Below are positions 4,717 through 62,571 of a stretch of DNA of 64,000 nt, one piece after another (the stretch's first letter is position 1; every line of letters starts with the position of its first letter). The position numbers were made by a program, and so were the translations under genes. The stretch is from Acidobacteriota bacterium. Its GTDB lineage: Bacteria > Acidobacteriota > Vicinamibacteria > Vicinamibacterales > CAVVIG01. Below the pieces are notes generated by a model. That model was not told the origin of the DNA, made no database searches, and worked only from the letters and a program-made list of their open reading frames with translations. The stretch spans positions 16,201 through 80,200 of the forward strand of contig JBDTVS010000004.1 in assembly GCA_040007095.1 (NCBI GenBank). Reading direction: 5' to 3'.

Positions 4717-6305
4717 GCGGTCGGCGTTCTCCAGCGCCGTTCGAGCCGCCTCGCCAGGGCCGACAGCGGCAGCGACATCAACAGATACAAGCCGGCGCAG
4801 ATCGAGCCTGGAATCACCCAGCTGCCCAGATTGGTCGCGAAGATCTGCGTCTGCTTCGTCAGCTCCAGGACGGTGAGCACCGAGACCAGCGAGGAGTCCT
4901 TCAGCAGCGCGACGAAATCGTTCGTCATCGGCGCCAGCGCCAGACGAAACGCCTGCGGACCGCGAACGAGCGTGAGGACCTGGCGTTCCGTCAACCCGAG
5001 CGTCCGCGCCGCTTCGAGCTGCCCGACGGAAATCGCCTCGAGTGCCGAGCGGTAGATCTCGCTTTCGTAGGCGGCATAGTTCAGCGCCAGCCCGAGCAGC
5101 GCGGCGACAAACGCCGGCAGCCGAATCGCCTCGGCGATTCCGTAATAGAGGACGAACAGCTGCAGGAGAATCGGCGTGCCGCGGATCAGCTCGACATATG
5201 CGGTCAGTGCGATGCGAACCACCCGCGAGCCGTAGACACGGCCGGTCGCGATCAGCACGCCAACAACCACCGCCAGCCCCATCGACAGACACGACAGCAG
5301 GATGGTGACCATCGATGCCTGAAGCAGTGACGGGAGGTACCGGCGCGCCGCTTCAACTCCCGACATCGTTGCTGCGGCGACGGCGTCGGAGCCGACCGTC
5401 GGCGGGATGGTCTCGCCGGCCAGCACCTGCTGGTGGAGCGCCGGTTGATCGTCGTTCCAGAGACTCCATTTGCGAAGGATACGCTCGAGGGAGCCGTCGC
5501 GCATCGCCCCGCGTACCAGATCGTCGATGCGCGCTCGAAGCGCCGTGTTCCCAGGCGCCAGCACGCCGATGTAGTGGCCAACGGCGACGCTGTCTGGCTG
5601 GACGGCGAACCCGCGGACCTTCTTCAGCATGCGCTCGGCGAGTACGTTGTCCAGGAGCACCGCGTCGACGCGTCCCACGACGAGGTCGGTGTACGGATGG
5701 GTATCGTCGTCGAAGGAGACCGGCACCACGCCGTGCTCTCGGCCAGCAGCGAGCAGAATCTCGTAGGCGACCGTGCCGCCGAGCGTTGCGACGCGGCGGC
5801 CCCGTAAATCGGCGAGCGACCGGTACCGCTGCGTGTCCGCGCTGCGGACGCTCAGCACTTCGCGGAATCGGTAGTACGGGACCGTGGCTGCGAGAGCGGC
5901 GCGGTTGGCGGGCGTATCTTCGAGGCCGTTGAGGCCGAGATCCGCGTCGCCCCTGGCGATCGACTGGGTGATGGACGCAAAGGTGATGTTGATGAATCGC
6001 GGCGTGCGTCCGAGACCGCGGGCCAGTAAGTCGGCAATCTCGACCTCGAAGCCCACCATCCGATCGGGGCGAGCTGGATCGGCTTCGACAAACGGTGCGC
6101 CGCCTTCCGAGTCTCCGGCCCAGACCAGTTCCTGCGGCGTCTGGGCGCGGACAACGGGAGCCCCTGCCGCCACCAGCAGCGCGACCAGCGCCAGGCAGAC
6201 GCCGAATGCCGCGCGGACCGCGGCTCCCGCGGCAGGCTCGCTGCTCAACTGTCCTCTGGCGTCGGACACCGCTCTAGGGCTCTGGAACACGTGGGGACAT
6301 GGCAC
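4713..6305 (-). CDS. Amino acid ABC transporter, fused periplasmic binding domain and permease
   Basis: 530 aa. A hydrophobic signal-like segment AAFGVCLALVALLVAAGAPVVRAQ comes first. Then a family-3 solute-binding domain (GFEVEIADLLARGLG). Then a permease domain (ELIRGTPILLQLFVLYYG, EAA-type LEAARTLGLTERQV). The codon at 6305 is GTG, so the exact start is uncertain. Confidence 0.85.
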   Translation of the reverse strand: MPCPHVFQSPRAVSDARGQLSSEPAAGAAVRAAFGVCLALVALLVAAGAPVVRAQTPQELVWAGDSEGGAPFVEADPARPDRMVGFEVEIADLLARGLGRTPRFINITFASITQSIARGDADLGLNGLEDTPANRAALAATVPYYRFREVLSVRSADTQRYRSLADLRGRRVATLGGTVAYEILLAAGREHGVVPVSFDDDTHPYTDLVVGRVDAVLLDNVLAERMLKKVRGFAVQPDSVAVGHYIGVLAPGNTALRARIDDLVRGAMRDGSLERILRKWSLWNDDQPALHQQVLAGETIPPTVGSDAVAAATMSGVEAARRYLPSLLQASMVTILLSCLSMGLAVVVGVLIATGRVYGSRVVRIALTAYVELIRGTPILLQLFVLYYGIAEAIRLPAFVAALLGLALNYAAYESEIYRSALEAISVGQLEAARTLGLTERQVLTLVRGPQAFRLALAPMTNDFVALLKDSSLVSVLTVLELTKQTQIFATNLGSWVIPGSICAGLYLLMSLPLSALARRLERRWRTPTA

Positions 6306-7157: not shown

Positions 7158-8221
7158 CGGTTGATCGCCAGGAACTCGTTGATTGGCTGAATGCTCGACG
7201 AGCTCACCGATGCCTGGAACGTCGAACGGATGATGACGCTGCGTCCGTCATGCGGCAGTCGGGCGACGTTCTTGGCGAATTGCGACGAGGCGTTGCCGAA
7301 CAGATAGGTCTCGATGTTCGAGATGTAGAACGCCGATACTTTGGTGCCGCGGGCGAGCAGCAGGTCGCCGATGGCGGCCAGCGCGTGCGTGCCGCCGAGA
7401 TCGCCGACGACAGGGACGATCAGATCCTGGGCTTCGAGCGACTTGACGAACTGAAAATCCGCCTCCGCCGCCAGGAAGCTCCAGGGGTGACCGGCGCGGT
7501 CGGTGGCCGTGACCAGATCGCGATACGTCGGATAGACCGCCTGCGGCCGACGTCCCCGGCTTTCGAATTTCAACGACAGGCCGCTTGCGATGAACGTGTG
7601 GTGAAAACGCTGAATCGTGGCGAAATCGGCAGCGGACAGCGGCACGCCGAACGCCGCCACCGCATCGTGCACTCGATGGTCGAGCTGCTGCAGCGCGTCG
7701 GTTCCTTCGGGCTTGGCGCCGTCGATGTAGCCGACGAGCCGTTCGAGGCTCGCCTCGCGCCATGTGTCCAGACGCTCCGGCGCCGGTCGCCCCGTCAGCA
7801 GCGCCGCGTATTCGACGCGGTTGTGCGCCAGTGCGAACAGCGACTTGAAGAGGAGGTGCACCAGCAGGTTGTCGCGCCGGATGTCGATGATGAACGCGAT
7901 CGACGGACGTACCTGTGCAATGTAGGAAAAATTCTGGTCCGGGCCGACGCCGATATACGCACCGCCCGAGACCCCCGCGGTCTTCAGCGCGGGGATCACG
8001 TGCAGAAACGACCGCTCGTTCGAGATGAGGTTGTCCGTATCGAAATCGCCCCCCTCTTCCGACAATCGCTGGACGAGGGACGGGAGCGACTGGCTCCCCG
8101 GTTGCGCGACCTCCAGCAGGGCCCCAGGTTCGACCGCCAGGGCCATCAGGACGGGGAGGACGGCGTAGCGAATCAAAGCGCTCAACCACATGGTTTTTGG
8201 ATTATAGTGCCGGCCCGACAT
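7154..8221 (-). CDS. Hypothetical exported protein, paralog of 8732..9880 (no family recognised)
   Basis: Frame of track ORF 7154..8335. I prefer ATG 8221 or 8191 (MWLSALIRYAVLPVLMALAV as signal or anchor). Blocks shared with 8732..9880: DNLISNERSFLHVIP/DNFLSNENAFQTVIP, YIGVGPDQNFSYI/YLGVGPEQNFTYV, AFIIDIRRDNLL/AFIVDIRRGNLL, VPVVGDLGG/VPVVGDFGG, VSAFYISNIETYLF/VSAFYTSNVEQYLF. Confidence 0.7.
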   Translation of the reverse strand: MSGRHYNPKTMWLSALIRYAVLPVLMALAVEPGALLEVAQPGSQSLPSLVQRLSEEGGDFDTDNLISNERSFLHVIPALKTAGVSGGAYIGVGPDQNFSYIAQVRPSIAFIIDIRRDNLLVHLLFKSLFALAHNRVEYAALLTGRPAPERLDTWREASLERLVGYIDGAKPEGTDALQQLDHRVHDAVAAFGVPLSAADFATIQRFHHTFIASGLSLKFESRGRRPQAVYPTYRDLVTATDRAGHPWSFLAAEADFQFVKSLEAQDLIVPVVGDLGGTHALAAIGDLLLARGTKVSAFYISNIETYLFGNASSQFAKNVARLPHDGRSVIIRSTFQASVSSSSIQPINEFLAINR

Positions 8222-11801: not shown

Positions 11802-11804
11802 CTT

Positions 11805-11964
11805 AGGACCCGTGGATGAATAACGTGCGCATTCTGGTCGCCGATGCATCCCGCCGGGCTGCGTTGCTCGTCACTTGCATACGCCCGGTATGCGCGCTCC
11901 TCGCGCCTTGCCGGGCGGGCGCCTCGACGCCCAGAATGGCACACGTTATTCATCTACGGGTCCT
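11805..11964 (+). repeat. Hairpin element family 1, copy A (160 bp)
   Basis: Long imperfect palindrome AGGACCCGTGGATGAATAACGTGCGCATTCTGG...CCAGAATGGCACACGTTATTCATCTACGGGTCCT enclosing a conserved core at 11843..11933. It differs from copy D at 3 of 160 positions. Confidence 0.9.
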
Positions 11965-12149
11965 TAGTGTCGTTTGGCCGGAACTTGTCGGTCGCGGTTT
12001 CGGGGCGGGCGGCCGGAGCGCAAGGCGCGGGGCTGGCTCACCGCTCTCGAAAGGGAAAGAATTTATGGAACTCGGGCGGTGGGGGACTGGAGGAAGCGAA
12101 GGGGAGATGCCAGGGAGCGGTTGTTCCACTCCCTGGCATTCGTCGGTCG

Positions 12150-29065: not shown

Positions 29066-30454
29066 TCAGTGCCCTTCAGCGGCCGCCGTGAACGGCTTGG
29101 GGTTCACGATCGCGCCATCGACCGAGGGCGCGCCCTCCACCACCACTCGCGCGCCGGGTTCGAGGCCGCGCTCGATGATCCAGCGGCTGAGGACGCGATC
29201 GCCTGCCCGCACCGTGCGCGTGCTCACTTTGTTGTCCCAATCGACGACGCGCACCTGAAACGCGCCCTGCAGCTCGTTCACCGCGCGCTGCGGCACCAGC
29301 AGCGCGTCGGTTCGCACCCGGGTCTCCGCCCGGACGCGGCCGTACTGGCCCGGGCGAAGCGTGCGGTCTGGATTCGGAAACGTGGCGCTGATGCGGATGG
29401 TTCCGGTCTTCGCGTCGATTTCGCGATCGGCCGCGAGAAACGTGCCGCGTCGCGGATAGATGCTGCCGTCGGCGAGCACCAACGTCAGCAGGCTGCCGCC
29501 TTCCCACGGCCCCTTCGCGTTGCGGCTGTTGATTCGGCCGGCCACCTGCAGGTACTCCTGCTCGCTCAAGGGAAAGTACGCCTTGATCGGATCGATTTGC
29601 GAGACCGTCGTCAGCAGCGTCGAAGGTCCGACCAGATCGCCGATCTGGGCGGTAGCGATCGCGGCGACGCCGTCGATGAGCGATGTGACCGACGTGAAGC
29701 CGACATTCAGCTGCGCCGTTTCGACGGCGGCGGTGGCGGACTGGACGGCCGCCTGCGCGGCGAGACTGGCCTGCACGTCGTTGTCGAACTGGCCTTGCGC
29801 GATGGCGCGCTGTTCGGCCAGGGGGCGATCGCGCGCGACGTCCCGCTCGGCCTTGCCCAGTTGCGCCTGCGCTTCGGCGAGCTGACCGCGTGCCTGCGCG
29901 AGCGCGGATTGGACCGGTCTCGCATCGATCTCAAACAGCACCTGCCCCTTTCGGATCCCGGCGCCTTCCTCGTAGTGGCGGGCCAGCAGGTAGCCCGTGA
30001 CCTGGGGTCGAATCTGCGCGTTGACGTAGCCGTCGAGCGTGGCGATCCATTCGCTGGTCAGCGCGACACGTTCCGGCATCACCGTCACGACGCTCACGTC
30101 TGGCGGCCGCGGAGGCGGCGGAGAGGCGTGGCCATTGCTGCATCCCTGGAACAGCACCGGCGCCAGAAAGAGCAGGGCACACACCGTTCCGGCCGAGTCG
30201 ACAAGCCGCTGGCGCGAGGAGGGAGCGGTGTCCTGCGCGTACTTTGACCGGCGCCGCCAGCGATTCGCGGACGGGTTGGGGGTTAGCAGCCCGTGGTGAA
30301 AGTCCGTCGTCGCACCGAGGCGGGTGATGCGCCCGGATCGCCAGGCGCGAAACGCGAGAATACCGGGAGTATTTGAGCGTTGAGCAACGCCGCGAGGCGG
30401 GATGCAGCGCTCGCCGAATGCAGACGGACTTTTGCCACGGGTTGTTAGGGTCAT
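29066..30454 (-). CDS. RND efflux periplasmic adaptor (membrane fusion protein)
   Basis: Adaptor blocks: VALTSEWIATLDGYVNAQIRPQVTGYL, the coiled-coil LAEAQAQLGKAERDVARDRPL, and VVEGAPSVDGAIVNP. The start is uncertain. ATG 30454 overlaps the stop of the small ORF (ATGA) but leaves about 100 aa before the hydrophobic LLFLAPVLFQGC segment. The track start is 30514. Confidence 0.85.
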   Translation of the reverse strand: MTLTTRGKSPSAFGERCIPPRGVAQRSNTPGILAFRAWRSGRITRLGATTDFHHGLLTPNPSANRWRRRSKYAQDTAPSSRQRLVDSAGTVCALLFLAPVLFQGCSNGHASPPPPRPPDVSVVTVMPERVALTSEWIATLDGYVNAQIRPQVTGYLLARHYEEGAGIRKGQVLFEIDARPVQSALAQARGQLAEAQAQLGKAERDVARDRPLAEQRAIAQGQFDNDVQASLAAQAAVQSATAAVETAQLNVGFTSVTSLIDGVAAIATAQIGDLVGPSTLLTTVSQIDPIKAYFPLSEQEYLQVAGRINSRNAKGPWEGGSLLTLVLADGSIYPRRGTFLAADREIDAKTGTIRISATFPNPDRTLRPGQYGRVRAETRVRTDALLVPQRAVNELQGAFQVRVVDWDNKVSTRTVRAGDRVLSRWIIERGLEPGARVVVEGAPSVDGAIVNPKPFTAAAEGH

Positions 30455-34466: not shown

Positions 34467-34580
34467 CTCAATCTCCAGTCTCGCTTACGGATCTCCGCGC
34501 CGCGAATCTTCCGTCCACGACCGCTCCAGCGCCATAGTAGTACCCGGTTTTTCTCTCGGACGCCAGTCGACGCCACTTAG

Positions 34581-34734
34581 AACCCTGGCGGAAATTAGGC
34601 TGCCACCTTCGCCGTCGATGCATCCCGCCGGGCTGCGTTGCTCGTCGCTTGCATACTCCCGGTATGCGCGCTCCTCACGCCTTGCCGGGCGGGCGCCTCG
34701 ACGCCCAAGCTGACAGCTTAATTCCCGCCAGGGT
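34581..34734 (+). repeat. Hairpin element family 1, copy B (154 bp)
   Basis: The core differs from copy A at 3 positions. The arms AACCCTGGCGGAAATTAGGCTGCC...CAGCTTAATTCCCGCCAGGGT differ in sequence from A/D but are mutually complementary. Confidence 0.9.
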
Positions 34735-34924
34735 CGTTAGGACCTCAGGCTTCGGGCGGCTCTCGCTGTCGGGCCAACGCTGCTCGCAACAAGCAGCGCA
34801 AGGTCGGGGCGGCAGCCGAATCGATGGGCGACAGGGAATCACATGGGGAATAATGTGCACGGTCAGGCACGTCGCCGCACGTGATTGCCTCGACATTTTG
34901 CGAAGGACCACCAGGAGACGCCAG

Positions 34925-35686: not shown

Positions 35687-35845
35687 CAGGGCCTGCGGCA
35701 AAATAAGGTGCACATTGTGGCCGCCGATGCATCCCGCCGGGCTGCGTTGCTCGTCGGTCACATGCACCCGCATGCTCCCTCCTCGCGCCTTGCGATCCGG
35801 GCGCCTCGGCGCCCAGCTTGGCACCCTTATTTTCTGTCCGGGCTG
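35687..35845 (+). repeat. Hairpin element family 1, copy C (about 159 bp, most diverged)
   Basis: Shares GATGCATCCCGCCGGGCTGCGTTGCTCGTC, CCTCGCGCCTTGC and GGGCGCCTCG with the other copies. The arms GGCAAAATAAGGTGCACATTGTGG...CCAGCTTGGCACCCTTATTTTCTG are complementary. The inner hairpin is changed to CATGC-ACCC-GCATG. Confidence 0.85.
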
Positions 35846-35938
35846 CTAAGGTCGAGCCGGCCGGCAGCCCGGGCTCGACGTCAAAAAAACACTCGGTAGA
35901 TCCGACCATCGTTGATATCCTCCTGTGGAGTAATTCAT

Positions 35939-37576
35939 ATGGAGAGCGGCTTGGACGACGCTGGACCAGTGGAGTCGGGTCAGCTTTCCGATTCCATCGT
36001 CTCGCTCGCCGACATGTTGGCGAGGGATGTGCACTTCGAGTGGTACGAGGCCCTCGCAACCGCACTGCAGCTGTGCCACGGCATCACCCAGTCGACTGAG
36101 CAGACCGGGCCCGCGACCGTTCAACTGGGCAATGTGTTTGTCGCCCCAGTGGGTGACGTGGTCGCTCTCACGCGCCCGCAGCATCCCGCGACCGCCGTGC
36201 CGCGAGTCGCCGAGCTGCTCAGTGAGATGCTCCCGGATTTTCATCGCCGTACCACGTTCCGTGCGGTGATTGCTCAGGCCACCTCCGATCCACCAGGCTA
36301 CGCATCGCTCGAAGAATTTGCGGAGGCCCTGGCGCCGTTCGAGCGGCCGGATCGGGTCGAGATCGTTCGAGGGGTGTACCAGCGCTGGCGGGTGATCTCG
36401 GCCACGGCTCTGCTCCCTGAATCCGACGCACTCGACATTTTCCTTTCCGAGGGGCCTGGCGTCGATCCGATCTCCCCTGAGCCGATCGTGGCGCCGACCC
36501 TGACGCCGGTCGTGGCGCCGAGTCCGGCGCCGACCCTGACGTCGAGTCTGACGCCGAGTCTGGCGTCGAGTCTGACGCCGAGTCCGGTGTCGAGCCTGAC
36601 ACCGAGTCTGGCGTCGAGTCTAGCGCCGGTCGAGATACCGAGTCTGACGCCCACTCTGGGGCCGAACCTGGCGCCGTACACGCCGTCGTTCACGGCGCCA
36701 GTCAAACCACGGGCACGACAGTCCTTCTGGCTGGGACAGTCCGAGTTCCTGCTGCACGCAGCGGCTTTGGCGGCGGTTGCCGTGGTGATTGCAGGTCTGG
36801 CCATCTGGGCGCTCGGATTGAGGCGTCCGGCCGCGGTGGTCAGCAGTCCTGCGAAGCAAACCGAACCGATTCCCGACAGAATAGAAACGCAGGGCCCTCC
36901 CGCCACGCCCGAGACTTCTCCCGCGGCACGCGCGGGAGCGTCGCCCGCCTCGTCCCGGCGGCCTGCGACGACGACCGCAGAAGCGCCACGCCTGCCGGCG
37001 CCTCCGGCCCCGCGCGAAATCGCGATCCCGGCCCCGCCGGCGTTGTCGGTGAGGGCGTCAACGGCGTCAACCAACAAGCCGATCGTGTCCGAGCAACCAG
37101 TCCAACCACTACGCGCGGCGCCGTCGGCGCCAAGACATTCACCAGAGACGCCGCTCGCCGCCTCGGAGCCGGTTATCGAGACCCCGTCGCGGCCGGCTGT
37201 TGTCGATGGGTCCTCAATCTCGGTTCCGAGTGCGCTCGCGCCATTGACCGTGGCACGGCCGAACCGTTTCGACGTCACGTCGACAACCTTCAGCGAAGCC
37301 GATGTGGACGTCGTACCACCTGTTCCTGATTCCTCGCAGCAACTCTGGCTCATGCCGGCGAGCCCGCGGCGTTCGGATCAGATCAGGATCGAAATCGTCG
37401 TGGACGAACGCGGTTCCGTGCAAGCCGTCAAGGCGAGGGACCGTACCGATAGCCTGAGCGACGCGGCCGCTTTGACGATGAGTCTCAGCGCCGTCAAATC
37501 GTGGCACTTCACCCCGGCACTGAAGGATGGCCGTCCGGTCAAGTTCCGGCTGAACCTGACGCTGACGATACACTGA
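35939..37576 (+). CDS. Membrane protein with C-terminal TonB-like domain and Pro/Ser/Thr-rich linker
   Basis: ATG 35939 sits 8 nt after GGAG. One TM helix (LLHAAALAAVAVVIAGLAIWAL). The C-terminal IRIEIVVDERGSVQAVKA...VKSWHFTPALKDGRPVKFRLNLTLTI resembles TonB_C. The N-terminal 170 aa are unassigned. Confidence 0.75.
   Translation: MESGLDDAGPVESGQLSDSIVSLADMLARDVHFEWYEALATALQLCHGITQSTEQTGPATVQLGNVFVAPVGDVVALTRPQHPATAVPRVAELLSEMLPDFHRRTTFRAVIAQATSDPPGYASLEEFAEALAPFERPDRVEIVRGVYQRWRVISATALLPESDALDIFLSEGPGVDPISPEPIVAPTLTPVVAPSPAPTLTSSLTPSLASSLTPSPVSSLTPSLASSLAPVEIPSLTPTLGPNLAPYTPSFTAPVKPRARQSFWLGQSEFLLHAAALAAVAVVIAGLAIWALGLRRPAAVVSSPAKQTEPIPDRIETQGPPATPETSPAARAGASPASSRRPATTTAEAPRLPAPPAPREIAIPAPPALSVRASTASTNKPIVSEQPVQPLRAAPSAPRHSPETPLAASEPVIETPSRPAVVDGSSISVPSALAPLTVARPNRFDVTSTTFSEADVDVVPPVPDSSQQLWLMPASPRRSDQIRIEIVVDERGSVQAVKARDRTDSLSDAAALTMSLSAVKSWHFTPALKDGRPVKFRLNLTLTIH
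36544..36627 (+). repeat. In-frame 12-bp tandem repeat x7 inside 35939..37576
   Basis: Seven 12-bp units GAG-YC-YRR-YGY-C, five of them GAGTCTG[AG]CG[CT]C. They encode the S-L-[TA]-[PS]-type tetrapeptides in ...SSLTPSLASSLTPSPVSSLTPSLASSLAP.... Confidence 0.9.
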
Positions 37577-47011: not shown

Positions 47012-47090
47012 CAGCCGAGACGGGGCGATGGCGGCGCCTGCCCGACGGACGAACCCCGCGCCGCCATCGTCAGGTATGAGGTTGACGTTT

Positions 47091-47250
47091 AGGACCCGTA
47101 GATGAATAACGTGCGCATTCTGGCCGCCGATGCATCCCGCCGGGCTGCGTTGCTCGTCACTTGCATACGCCCGGTATGCGCGCTCCTCGCGCCTTGCCGG
47201 GCGGGCGCCTCGACGCCCAGAATTGCACACGTTATTCATCTACGGGTCCT
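47091..47250 (+). repeat. Hairpin element family 1, copy D (160 bp)
   Basis: 157 of 160 positions are identical to copy A. Intergenic, between the DUF1552 stop and the ankyrin gene. Confidence 0.9.
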
Positions 47251-60777: not shown

Positions 60778-62571
60778 CTACTTGTTGTCCTTCCGGTCGA
60801 CCAGGCGCTCGACGGCCCGTCCGGTTCGCTCCTCGAGTGCCCCCACGACGCTATTGACATCGTCGCCGTCGATGCGCAGCACGATGAACGCGTCATTCGT
60901 CCGCAGCGACAGCCAGTGCCGATCGCCTTTGAAGAACCCCAGCCCGGTGTCCAGGCGGAAGACCTGTCTTGGTCCCGACGGCGTGGTCCACATCGGCTGC
61001 TTCGACTTCGAGTAGCTGAGCGAGAGCACGCTGCCAAACGGAATCGAGCTGACCACGGACTCGGAGGTTCGGTCCAGGCGGACGGTGACCGTGACGATGC
61101 CCTCGGAGAGGAGCACTTTCGCGTCGTGCTCTTTCTCTTTGTCGTTTTCCTTGACGAACGCCTTGGCCTCGAAGGCAAACGGCGGCAGGTTCGCCGCTGC
61201 CGCAGGTCGCCCGGGAGATGCACCGGCCGGCGCGCCGCTGACCGGCGCAACGTTGCGCGCGGCCAGCGCCGGCGGGGTTCCGGCTGGCGCCGCTGCCGCG
61301 GGCGGCGGCTGCGTGACGACGCCTGGCCGCTTGAGCTCGTATGCCCCGCCTGCAGGTTTGCCTGCCGGCACCGAGACCTGCCTCGACGCGGCAGCCTGGG
61401 TGCCCGGAGAGGTTGGCAGATCCACGACGCCGGCTGACGCCGGGGGTGGATCCACGGGCGCGGAGGTGCCTGGCCGCAGCGCCAGCGCCGCCAGCAACAC
61501 GACAGCGATCAACGCCAGCAGCGCGCCGCCGCTCGCCAATGGGTTCGCCTTCAGGAGGGCCAACACGCTGGCGGCCGAGAGCGCGCCGGACGGCATCACG
61601 GAGCGGTCCGGCGGCGCTGCGACGCTTGGCGGTGCGATGGACGGCGCCACAGCTGCGACGGTCGACGGTGCGATCGGCGGCGCCACAGCAGCGACCTGAC
61701 GCGTCGGAGCGGGCCGAGGCGTCGGCTGGCTGCCAAGCGGCATCGTCCGCTCCATCACCGCGGAGTTCAGCGGCTCGAGCAACGCCTGACGGAATTCCTC
61801 GGCGGTTTGAAAGCGCTCAGCAGGAAGCTTCGCCAGCGCGCGCGTGAGCACCGCCTCGCACCAGTCGGGAATGTCGGCGCGATGCGCGCGGGCGGGCGTG
61901 GGCTGGTCGGACACCTGCTTCTGCACCATGCCCATGACCGTGTCGGAGCGGAACGGAAGGGCACCCGTGAGCAGACGGTAGAACACCACACCGACTGAAT
62001 AGAGATCGGCGCGAGGGTCCACTTCCTGTCCCAGCACCTGCTCGGGCGCCATGTACGCCGGCGTGCCCATCATGAAGCCGTCCATGGTCGTGTGCGCGGC
62101 GCCAAGGACGCGGGCGATGCCGAAATCCATCACCTTGACATGACCCTGGTCGTTCACCATCACGTTCGCCGGCTTGAGGTCGCGATGGACAATGCCGGAC
62201 CGGTGCGCGTAGTCCAGCGCGCCGAGCACTTGTGCGGCCAGATAGGCGGCCCGCTCGGGCGGCAGCGGCCCGCTGCGATGGGACAACTTCTCGAGCGTCT
62301 CGCCCCTCACATACTCCATCACCATCAGCAGGTCGGATTCCCACCGGTACAGCTCGTAGATCGTCGCGATTTCCGGATGATTCAGCTTGGCGAGTGTCGT
62401 CGCTTCCGTACGAAAGCGCGTCACGACGTCTTGCTCGTCCAAATCGGCGCTGAAGACCTTGATCGCGACTTCGCGGTCGAGCGTCTCGTCCACCGCCTTG
62501 TACACGACACCCATACCGCCGCGCCCGAGGGTTTCGACGATTCGATATTTGCCGAGCGTTTTTCCTACCAT
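60778..62571 (-). CDS. Ser/Thr protein kinase with TM segment and extracytoplasmic C-terminal domain
   Basis: 597 aa. GRGGMGVVYKA, VAIKVF, HRDLKPANVMV, DFGIA and PAYMAPE are canonical. The TM helix GGALLALIAVVLLAALAL is followed by a ~130-aa unassigned C-terminal domain. Confidence 0.92.
   Translation of the reverse strand: MVGKTLGKYRIVETLGRGGMGVVYKAVDETLDREVAIKVFSADLDEQDVVTRFRTEATTLAKLNHPEIATIYELYRWESDLLMVMEYVRGETLEKLSHRSGPLPPERAAYLAAQVLGALDYAHRSGIVHRDLKPANVMVNDQGHVKVMDFGIARVLGAAHTTMDGFMMGTPAYMAPEQVLGQEVDPRADLYSVGVVFYRLLTGALPFRSDTVMGMVQKQVSDQPTPARAHRADIPDWCEAVLTRALAKLPAERFQTAEEFRQALLEPLNSAVMERTMPLGSQPTPRPAPTRQVAAVAPPIAPSTVAAVAPSIAPPSVAAPPDRSVMPSGALSAASVLALLKANPLASGGALLALIAVVLLAALALRPGTSAPVDPPPASAGVVDLPTSPGTQAAASRQVSVPAGKPAGGAYELKRPGVVTQPPPAAAAPAGTPPALAARNVAPVSGAPAGASPGRPAAAANLPPFAFEAKAFVKENDKEKEHDAKVLLSEGIVTVTVRLDRTSESVVSSIPFGSVLSLSYSKSKQPMWTTPSGPRQVFRLDTGLGFFKGDRHWLSLRTNDAFIVLRIDGDDVNSVVGALEERTGRAVERLVDRKDNK

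Follow-up and report, generated by a model that had tools for sequence, protein, structure and literature searches.

Copies of the Repeat and Their Neighbors

The window, that is, the whole 64-kb stretch of DNA analyzed here, contains five copies of a repeat of 157-158 nt in which inverted arms of about 40 nt enclose a conserved core. All five lie between genes, as had been claimed in the original prediction for the four copies that it reported. These four (A to D) were found at the places given for them, in the same orientation and all on the + strand. A 30-nt string of the core, GATGCATCCCGCCGGGCTGCGTTGCTCGTC, occurs exactly four times in the window and in none of 100 shuffles, a second conserved block, CTCCTCGCGCCTTGC, is present in all four of copies A to D, and alignment of copies A and D gave the three differing positions inside the element that had been described. 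The copy number itself was one short: a fifth, diverged copy on the minus strand (E) had been overlooked and was detected with nhmmer and with a covariance model, which returned exactly five cores (A to E) when run with filters off over the whole window. The true ends of the copies lie slightly wider than had been proposed, reaching out to GGACCC.../...GGGTCC. The features are as follows.

11806..11963, + strand: copy A, type 1, 158 nt (sequence and alignment); the predicted folding strand is the complement
Terminal inverted repeat of copy A: GGACCCGTGGATGAATAACGTG / CACGTTATTCATCTACGGGTCC
11803..11805 (left) and 11964-11966 (right): target-site duplication TTA of copy A
11848..11921, + strand: core of copy A, 74 nt (covariance model R1, 86.7 bits, E = 2e-19)
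34580..34736, + strand: copy B, type 1, 157 nt, with TTA at 34577-34579 and 34737-34739; absent from the orthologous site of contig L210
34622..34695, + strand: core of copy B (R1, 86.5 bits)
About 35689..35846, + strand: copy C, type 1, with degenerate ends and a variant apical hairpin; TCA on the left, TAA on the right
35731..35803, + strand: core of copy C (R1, 71.6 bits)
47092..47249, + strand: copy D, type 1, with 3 differences from A; TTA at 47089-47091, the TTC on the right being a decayed repeat
47134..47207, + strand: core of copy D (R1, 86.7 bits)
30287..30444, - strand: copy E, type 2, with ends CAACCCGTGGCAAAAGTCC...GGACTTTCACCACGGGCTG (nhmmer and sequence)
30445-30448 and 30283-30286: CTAA direct repeats flanking copy E
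30330..30403, - strand: core of copy E (R1, 78 bits, E = 3e-17)

The genes beside the five copies encode a TPR protein, a DUF6152 protein, an esterase, a CMD-family enzyme, a DUF1552 protein, an ankyrin-repeat protein, an efflux membrane-fusion protein and a sigma-54 activator, which are mutually unrelated and have nothing in common. No transposase is among the ten proteins that flank the copies, a tblastn search with one IS1380-like transposase was also negative, and a scan for tRNA and tmRNA genes found none.

Two further repeats of other kinds were seen in the window. About 19 tandem units of 12 nt (TGACGCCGAGTC-like) occupy positions 36465-36692 within an open reading frame of 554 aa (35912-37576) without a Pfam match. 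The syntenic genes on two related contigs encode 572 aa (L210) and 593 aa (L211), so the number of these units may vary. At 61616-61687 a pair of adjoining 36-nt units is 86% identical (GCTGCGACGCTTGGCGGTGCGATGGACGGCGCCACA).

Anatomy and Mobility of the Elements

The repeats are non-coding MITEs by short length, lack of coding capacity, terminal inverted repeats, target duplication, dispersed copies and absence from an orthologous site. The original prediction had regarded their conserved center and variable arms as the opposite of a MITE; this view fails on the terminal inverted repeats, the target duplication, an empty site for copy B and one class that shares its ends with an IS. The terminal inverted repeats have semi-conserved bases at their extreme ends (GGGCCC/GGACCC) and a semi-conserved GAATAA box, and the arms of about 40 nt are paired in an alignment of 42 non-redundant copies. 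Inter-block lengths in the core run from 29 to 39 nt and differ among copies by numbers that are not multiples of three; the element has no coding potential.

The flanks of 60 complete copies are TTA/TTA in 15 and TAA/TAA in another 15, with discordant TWA pairs in 7, and these 30 concordant against 7 discordant pairs establish a 3-bp TWA target-site duplication. For type 1, duplication of only the 2-bp TA was rejected, as the base beside the TA agrees on both sides in 30 of the 37 informative copies. The target duplication differs by class, being TWA in type 1, CTAA in copy E of type 2 and ATTAA/ATGAA in a copy from Polaromonas.

Orthologous presence and absence were checked with the help of the gene for the CMD-family enzyme, which lies between copies B and C and through which syntenic contigs were retrieved. 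The closest of these, L210, encodes a CMD-family protein that is 95% identical, keeps the order of esterase, CMD-family gene and next gene, and carries no core anywhere on the contig. At site B it lacks exactly the element and one TTA, and is thus an exact empty site: the elements are mobile. At site C (L210 2207-2384) there is no clean empty site, and about 45 nt of unrelated sequence lie between TCAGGG... and ...CAAGG; this stretch may be the remnant of an older element.

Copies are numerous, with five in 64 kb and dozens of loci from single metagenome-assembled genomes (MAGs), and they frequently adjoin the stop codon of a neighboring gene, a position that is expected because the target is TAA or TTA in a genome of 65% G+C. 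DDE transposases of the IS4/IS5/IS1380 kind would move the elements in trans, and insertion would take place at short TA-centered targets, which in such a genome would mostly be stop codons and gene ends. Three half copies (L063, L064, and L066) were examined as candidate ends of a larger element. Downstream of each lies neither a second half nor a transposase, just ordinary genes, and the half copies are therefore deletions.

Spread of the Core and Classes of Arms

The core of about 74 nt was retrieved from more than 200 loci. Their sources are Acidobacteriota, Planctomycetota, Proteobacteria and other phyla, and AT-rich genomes are among them. A scan for an exact 22-mer of the core, which sampled one genome per species, listed at least 82 genome loci, mostly from MAGs of Vicinamibacterales (Acidobacteriota) and many from the same genome. 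Within diverged arms, the core was found in bins of Planctomycetota, Omnitrophota, Rhodocyclaceae, Desulfobacteraceae, and Verrucomicrobia, and diverged relatives of the core were also recovered by nhmmer. When non-redundant type 1 copies are compared across genomes, some 90 nt stay nearly constant as a block, while the arms vary freely yet remain paired. A pattern scan of metagenomes that excluded type 1 gave at least 120 matches. The metagenome loci fall into at least six unrelated classes of arms, flanked mostly by CTAG and in some cases by TTA/TAA, and the core remains G+C-rich and conserved even in loci of only 41-45% G+C.

Viral contigs did not contain the exact 22-mer; a loose pattern matched five loci in them, three of which were judged real. 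The predicted viral contig IMGVR_UViG_3300022695_000189 has two copies (L205 3172-3223 and L206 5286-5337), and just upstream of these are fragments that resemble the reverse complement of core motifs (AAGGCGCG, AGGCGCAACGCC).

Three loci (L091, L121, and L176) are chimeric, with the left arm of one class and the right arm of another, and a fourth (L094 86-227) has two head-to-head cores with one common arm. These arrangements suggest that classes have recombined through the core that they have in common. In L179, the core is directly followed downstream by GGTGCTA heptamer repeats (about 7395-7455).

No family in Rfam 15 matches the core in any class, in agreement with the original prediction, which had recognized no known RNA family in it. 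At the gathering threshold the window gave no matches; in E-value mode, copy A gave matches at chance level only, the best at 18.9 bits against a cutoff of 51, and 15 diverse metagenome loci gave nothing on the core. The core sequence had no match on either strand in the searchable literature, and no description of the element was found in publications on MITEs in Acidobacteria or with IS1380 or in surveys of structured RNAs. To our knowledge, no bacterial MITE superfamily has been described in which a single internal module crosses phyla and the terminal repeats are exchanged.

Transposase Partner

A sister class with different arms was first seen in a Rhodocyclaceae bin (L010) and also occurs at several metagenome loci, and a BLAST search against plasmids revealed relatives of this betaproteobacterial-looking class on plasmids of Polaromonas and Caballeronia. 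On the plasmid of Polaromonas sp. P1-6 (CP087967), the core-bearing element has the ends CCTAGAAAC[A/G]GCAGTTGA and the 5-bp duplication ATTAA/ATGAA. About 360 bp away lies an IS1380-like IS (L203 3515-5147) with the ends CCTAGAAACGGCAGTTAGC / CCTATTTTCGGCAGTTAGC and a TTTAA duplication. Its transposase of 510 aa matches DDE_Tnp_1_4, and its best NCBIfam match is the IS1380 model at 155 bits, which is below the curated cutoff of 180. The IS itself is without the core. The two stand in the usual relation of a MITE and its master, for that class only. The IS directly adjoins a tyrosine-integrase gene (5128-5943).

For the type 1 and type 2 copies of the window, no partner transposase was found in the DNA searched. 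Repeats of more than 300 bp common to the loci contained no IS, clustering of 2673 open reading frames within 3 kb of cores gave no recurrent neighbor, terminal repeats away from cores belonged to other MITE copies only, and BLAST searches of plasmids with a type 1 copy and with the consensus core returned nothing real. With no transposase nearby, no recurring protein family and no longer common repeat, the elements are non-autonomous. By analogy, the TWA and CTAA duplications together with the GG...GAATAA ends suggest that types 1 and 2 are moved by IS5-type transposases: the type 1 ends have a GG start, a GAATAA-like box and a 3-bp TWA/TNA duplication, a combination that we take to resemble the IS5 family and PIF/Harbinger.

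Structure and Covariation of the Core

A conserved core with covarying stems had been described from the four reported copies, and this holds among relatives from other genomes. In 42 non-redundant relatives, 30 of the 47 predicted pairs of the arms and apical hairpin show compensatory double changes, and single positions of the type 1 alignment take up to five types of pair. Copy A folds far better than its shuffles (z = -8.3 for the + strand and -9.6 for the - strand).

The core was tested separately, with a model consisting of a 10-bp closing stem, an apical hairpin of 5-6 bp, a 2-bp helix and an isolated pair, on a gap-free alignment of 35 non-redundant cores of 74 nt. Paired cells amount to 88%, compared to 71% in column shuffles and 37-47% in controls with slid partners, and the covariation score of 0.41 (0.12 in shuffles) was reached in none of 500 shuffles. 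C-G and G-C interchange freely in the 2-bp helix, and the isolated pair (23,53) is C-G in 24 cores, A-U in 5, G-C in 4, and U-A in 1. In 108 metagenome cores 85% of the cells are paired against 59% in shuffles, a figure favored by an alignment that was fitted to the model. The apical hairpin occurs in dozens of sequences and several lengths. Six TC dinucleotides (on the reported strand) are invariant and lie among covarying pairs, and some 20 further positions are invariant as well. The support from covariation covers the 10-bp stem, the variable hairpin and the isolated pairs between the six dinucleotides.

One Verrucomicrobia locus (L043 955-1126) has its apical hairpin replaced by a 9-bp hairpin, in which the conserved block TTGCTCGTC itself pairs with the downstream GACGAGCAA. 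This is an alternative fold of the conserved strand.

Which Strand Folds

The strand on which the repeat was originally reported is probably not the one that folds, as both the types of mismatch and the folding energies indicate. An A·C mismatch corresponds to a G·U wobble when the complementary strand is read. Among the non-Watson-Crick cells of the core, the reported strand has 122 A·C against 15 G·U and 105 Y·Y against 48 R·R, counts that are not phylogenetically independent and come from an alignment (A5) fitted to the model; A·C still exceeds G·U by 58 to 15 when one mostly-A·C position is dropped. The outer arms of 65 elements other than type 1 are asymmetric in the same way (A·C 119 against G·U 37, Y·Y 141 against R·R 50); in type 1 arms there is no such asymmetry (G·U 35, A·C 44). 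The asymmetry runs opposite to the bias of the aligning model, and all counts agree in direction. Furthermore, in 120 of 153 cores the complement is predicted to fold at a lower energy than the reported strand (p = 2e-15).

Read on the reported strand, the six dinucleotides form tandem pyrimidine·pyrimidine mismatches and the isolated pair is stranded between two 2x2 loops. On the complement they become GA/GA in the arrangement of tandem sheared G·A pairs, and the core is predicted to form one continuous rod. RNAalifold, run on the complement, predicted unprompted a rod with three 2x2 GA/GA loops. Along this rod follow a 10-bp stem, AAGGCGC, the series GA-N-GA-NN-GA facing GA-NN-GA-N-GA, and, at its tip, the variable hairpin. 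Covarying Watson-Crick pairs would thus hold three tandem G·A blocks; we have not seen a motif of three such blocks clamped by single covarying pairs described. With mismatch counts, energies and RNAalifold all pointing the same way, the sequence comparisons indicate that the complement of the reported strand is under structural selection.

The original prediction had seen in the repeat either selection on a folded RNA or the hairpin DNA substrate of a recombinase. Selection on a folded single strand is supported by the mismatches and the isolated covarying pairs. The elements are not attC sites, REPINs or IS200/IS605-derived palindromes. The ends GGGCCC.../CAGCCC... are not the GTTRRRY R''/R' sites of integron attC, TWA or CTAA is duplicated, and the neighbors are housekeeping genes. 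REP/REPIN sequences with RAYT are palindromes of 20-40 nt with a GTAG head and no duplication, as opposed to an element of about 157 nt with a target duplication. Palindromes derived from IS200/IS605 have subterminal hairpins, no terminal inverted repeats and no duplication, while full-length inverted arms and a duplication are present here. All three were rejected because each fails on target duplication and type of end.

Proposed Nature of the Passenger and Possible Constraint After Insertion

We read the elements as MITEs that are moved by DDE transposases and carry a conserved structured passenger, probably an RNA, and we put the probability of this reading at roughly 0.6. The passenger, a 74-nt module almost invariant across phyla, is carried between many unrelated pairs of terminal repeats, and the module, and in most classes the whole element as well, would be selected to fold single-stranded. 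The folded form would be an RNA transcribed through the element, which would bind a broadly conserved cellular factor or undergo processing. In such an RNA, the arms of about 40 bp would make a dsRNA-like substrate or a double-stranded handle. Mobility, target duplication, covariation and strand asymmetry are demonstrated by the sequences. We infer both the nature of the folded molecule, as RNA and not single-stranded DNA, and its role; RNA is favored because the pattern of conservation is that of functional RNAs and because double-strand transposition needs no folded DNA.

Several observations speak against simple expression by read-through. Neither a sigma-70-like promoter nor an intrinsic terminator was found in or beside copy A. 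The orientation of type 1 copies shows no bias relative to the neighboring genes (44 against 58) or to the local GC skew (41 of 71), and, judged by this skew, no bias in replication strand. In the non-type-1 set, the neighboring genes favor the strand that places the weaker-folding version in the mRNA (73 against 37), which is a poor fit to simple read-through expression of the folding strand. Several known signals were considered by eye as the content of the core: an anti-Shine-Dalgarno loop and sigma-54 and sigma-70 promoters were rejected on spacing, poor conservation or frame, and a CsrA-type GGA hairpin loop was rejected, as the loop is unconserved across classes.

One orthologous insertion is shared by two related genomes (L070 2532-2688 and L081 511-667), and in this one pair of loci 2 of 157 positions of the element differ, compared to about 10% in the coding DNA beside it. 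Among copies of the same genome, changes number 8 in 756 positions for the 3' half of the core and 38 in 1407 for the arms. Both findings could be due either to purifying selection after insertion or to gene conversion between copies. The shared element fills the entire gap from the stop codon of the upstream gene to the start of ndk, and in L081 the duplicated TAA overlaps the ATG (TAATG); as the element fills this gap, its end would have to supply the ribosome-binding region.

A stronger version of the RNA reading, which we offer tentatively and consider somewhat more doubtful than probable, would make the 74-nt core a structured RNA of a new class that has its own function and has repeatedly been repackaged between the ends of different IS families. 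In effect it would be an RNA gene spreading among bacterial phyla as a MITE passenger, and the run of three tandem G·A pairs, with single covarying base pairs as clamps, would be its recognition surface. It could, for example, serve a universally conserved protein as decoy or scaffold, act as a processing signal, or contain a catalytic motif.

The main rival to the RNA account, to which we would give a modest chance, is a fold of single-stranded DNA: one strand would extrude as a hairpin in replication, repair or transposition and be recognized by a recombinase, a transposase or a host enzyme. G·T and sheared G·A pairs are stable in DNA too, and the strand-specific spectrum of mismatches and the tandem G·A blocks suit DNA as well as RNA. 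The missing promoter at copy A, the orientation relative to genes, which varies between classes, and the association of the core with transposon ends of several kinds also count in its favor. However, target duplications and terminal inverted repeats indicate double-strand DDE transposition, for which no folded strand is needed. The lack of any orientation bias with respect to GC skew, the absence of a recombinase or HUH/Y1 gene that recurs near copies, and an IS that shares its ends with one class and does not carry the core likewise weigh against it.

Weaker, and in our opinion improbable, is the explanation that these are purely selfish palindromic MITEs with a functionless core, the conservation of which reflects recent horizontal spread, while pairing and mismatches arise from hairpin-templated repair or gene conversion and not from selection. 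The near-identity of copies inside one genome is consistent with recent bursts, and recombination between elements is evident from the chimeric arms and the head-to-head arrangement. Mismatch repair recognizes pyrimidine·pyrimidine mismatches least well, and these are also the commonest on the reported strand. Yet the core is nearly constant although its arms have been swapped among at least six unrelated classes in hosts of 41% to 81% G+C, the invariant dinucleotides and the roughly 20 other invariant positions stand beside covarying pairs, and within genomes changes are rarer in the 3' half of the core than in the arms.

Very improbable is a role of the conserved blocks as duplex DNA, in which the element would spread a promoter or the binding sites of a regulator or nucleoid protein. 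Two conserved blocks do have a common TTGC motif (GCGTTGCTC, CGCCTTGCC) at a roughly fixed spacing, but covarying unconserved pairs, an isolated pair and the large excess of A·C over G·U are meaningless for duplex DNA, the inter-block spacing ranges from 29 to 39 nt, no sigma-70-like promoter was found, and on reading the sequence the spacing is unfit for a sigma-54 -24/-12 element. We give hardly any credence to a short peptide encoded on the complementary strand (ARR[ED][ED]R.YR.Y...EQR), for although several classes are open in one frame there with seemingly conservative replacements, inter-block lengths shift by 1-2 nt among classes (29, 30, 31, 32, 33 ... nt), start and stop are unconserved, and the variable positions behave as base pairs and not as codons.

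Comparison With Known Systems

The elements have much in common with bacterial MITEs derived from IS4, IS5, and IS1380 and with the eukaryotic Tourist elements (PIF/Harbinger), all being short and non-coding with terminal inverted repeats and many copies. They also have in common with them TA-centered targets, the 3-bp TWA duplication (4-5 bp in other classes) and empty sites. In ordinary MITEs, however, the ends are conserved and the interior drifts, whereas here the interior is the most conserved part, recurs in classes whose ends are unrelated, and covaries like an RNA, with asymmetry between the strands.

ERIC/IRU sequences of enterobacteria and the Correia/NEMIS sequences of Neisseria are likewise imperfect palindromes of 100-160 bp that lie between genes and often at gene ends. 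Transcripts of ERIC and Correia elements form long hairpins; for ERIC, effects on mRNA processing that depend on orientation have been reported, and for Correia, cleavage by RNase III. Each of the two is restricted to a single bacterial group, in contrast to the present core with its range over several phyla. Neither is known to have a block of three tandem G·A pairs, and, judged by description, no similarity was recognized. On these likenesses they would be the functionally nearest analogs.

Retrozymes appear to offer a conceptual likeness. These eukaryotic retroelements with hammerhead ribozymes, plant retrozymes among them, are also non-autonomous mobile elements in which the most conserved part is a small structured RNA motif and not the ends. 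Unlike in retrozymes, the vehicle here is a DNA transposon, and the core matches no ribozyme family. Integron attC sites and the ends of IS200/IS605 resemble the present elements in that the structure of the stem is conserved over its sequence and one strand appears to fold. These substrates have no terminal inverted repeats with target duplications and need a nearby integrase or Y1 transposase, whereas the elements described here have such repeats and duplications and no associated recombinase gene.

Significance

MITEs are usually seen as junk that is constrained only at its ends. Here an internal module outlives the ends and is found almost unchanged in Acidobacteriota, Planctomycetota, Proteobacteria, and AT-rich uncultured bacteria. 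In MAGs of Vicinamibacterales, many of the copies that were retrieved are situated where a short contig ends, which fits assembly breaks induced by repeats. Since the elements lie at stop codons and at least one abuts a start codon, they may shape the 3' and 5' untranslated regions of the neighboring genes. These observations are of relevance to research on both bacterial non-coding RNA and transposons. If the module is an RNA, it would be among the more widespread uncharacterized bacterial RNA motifs in soil and groundwater communities, and it would be a bacterial non-coding RNA that uses DNA transposons as its vehicle.
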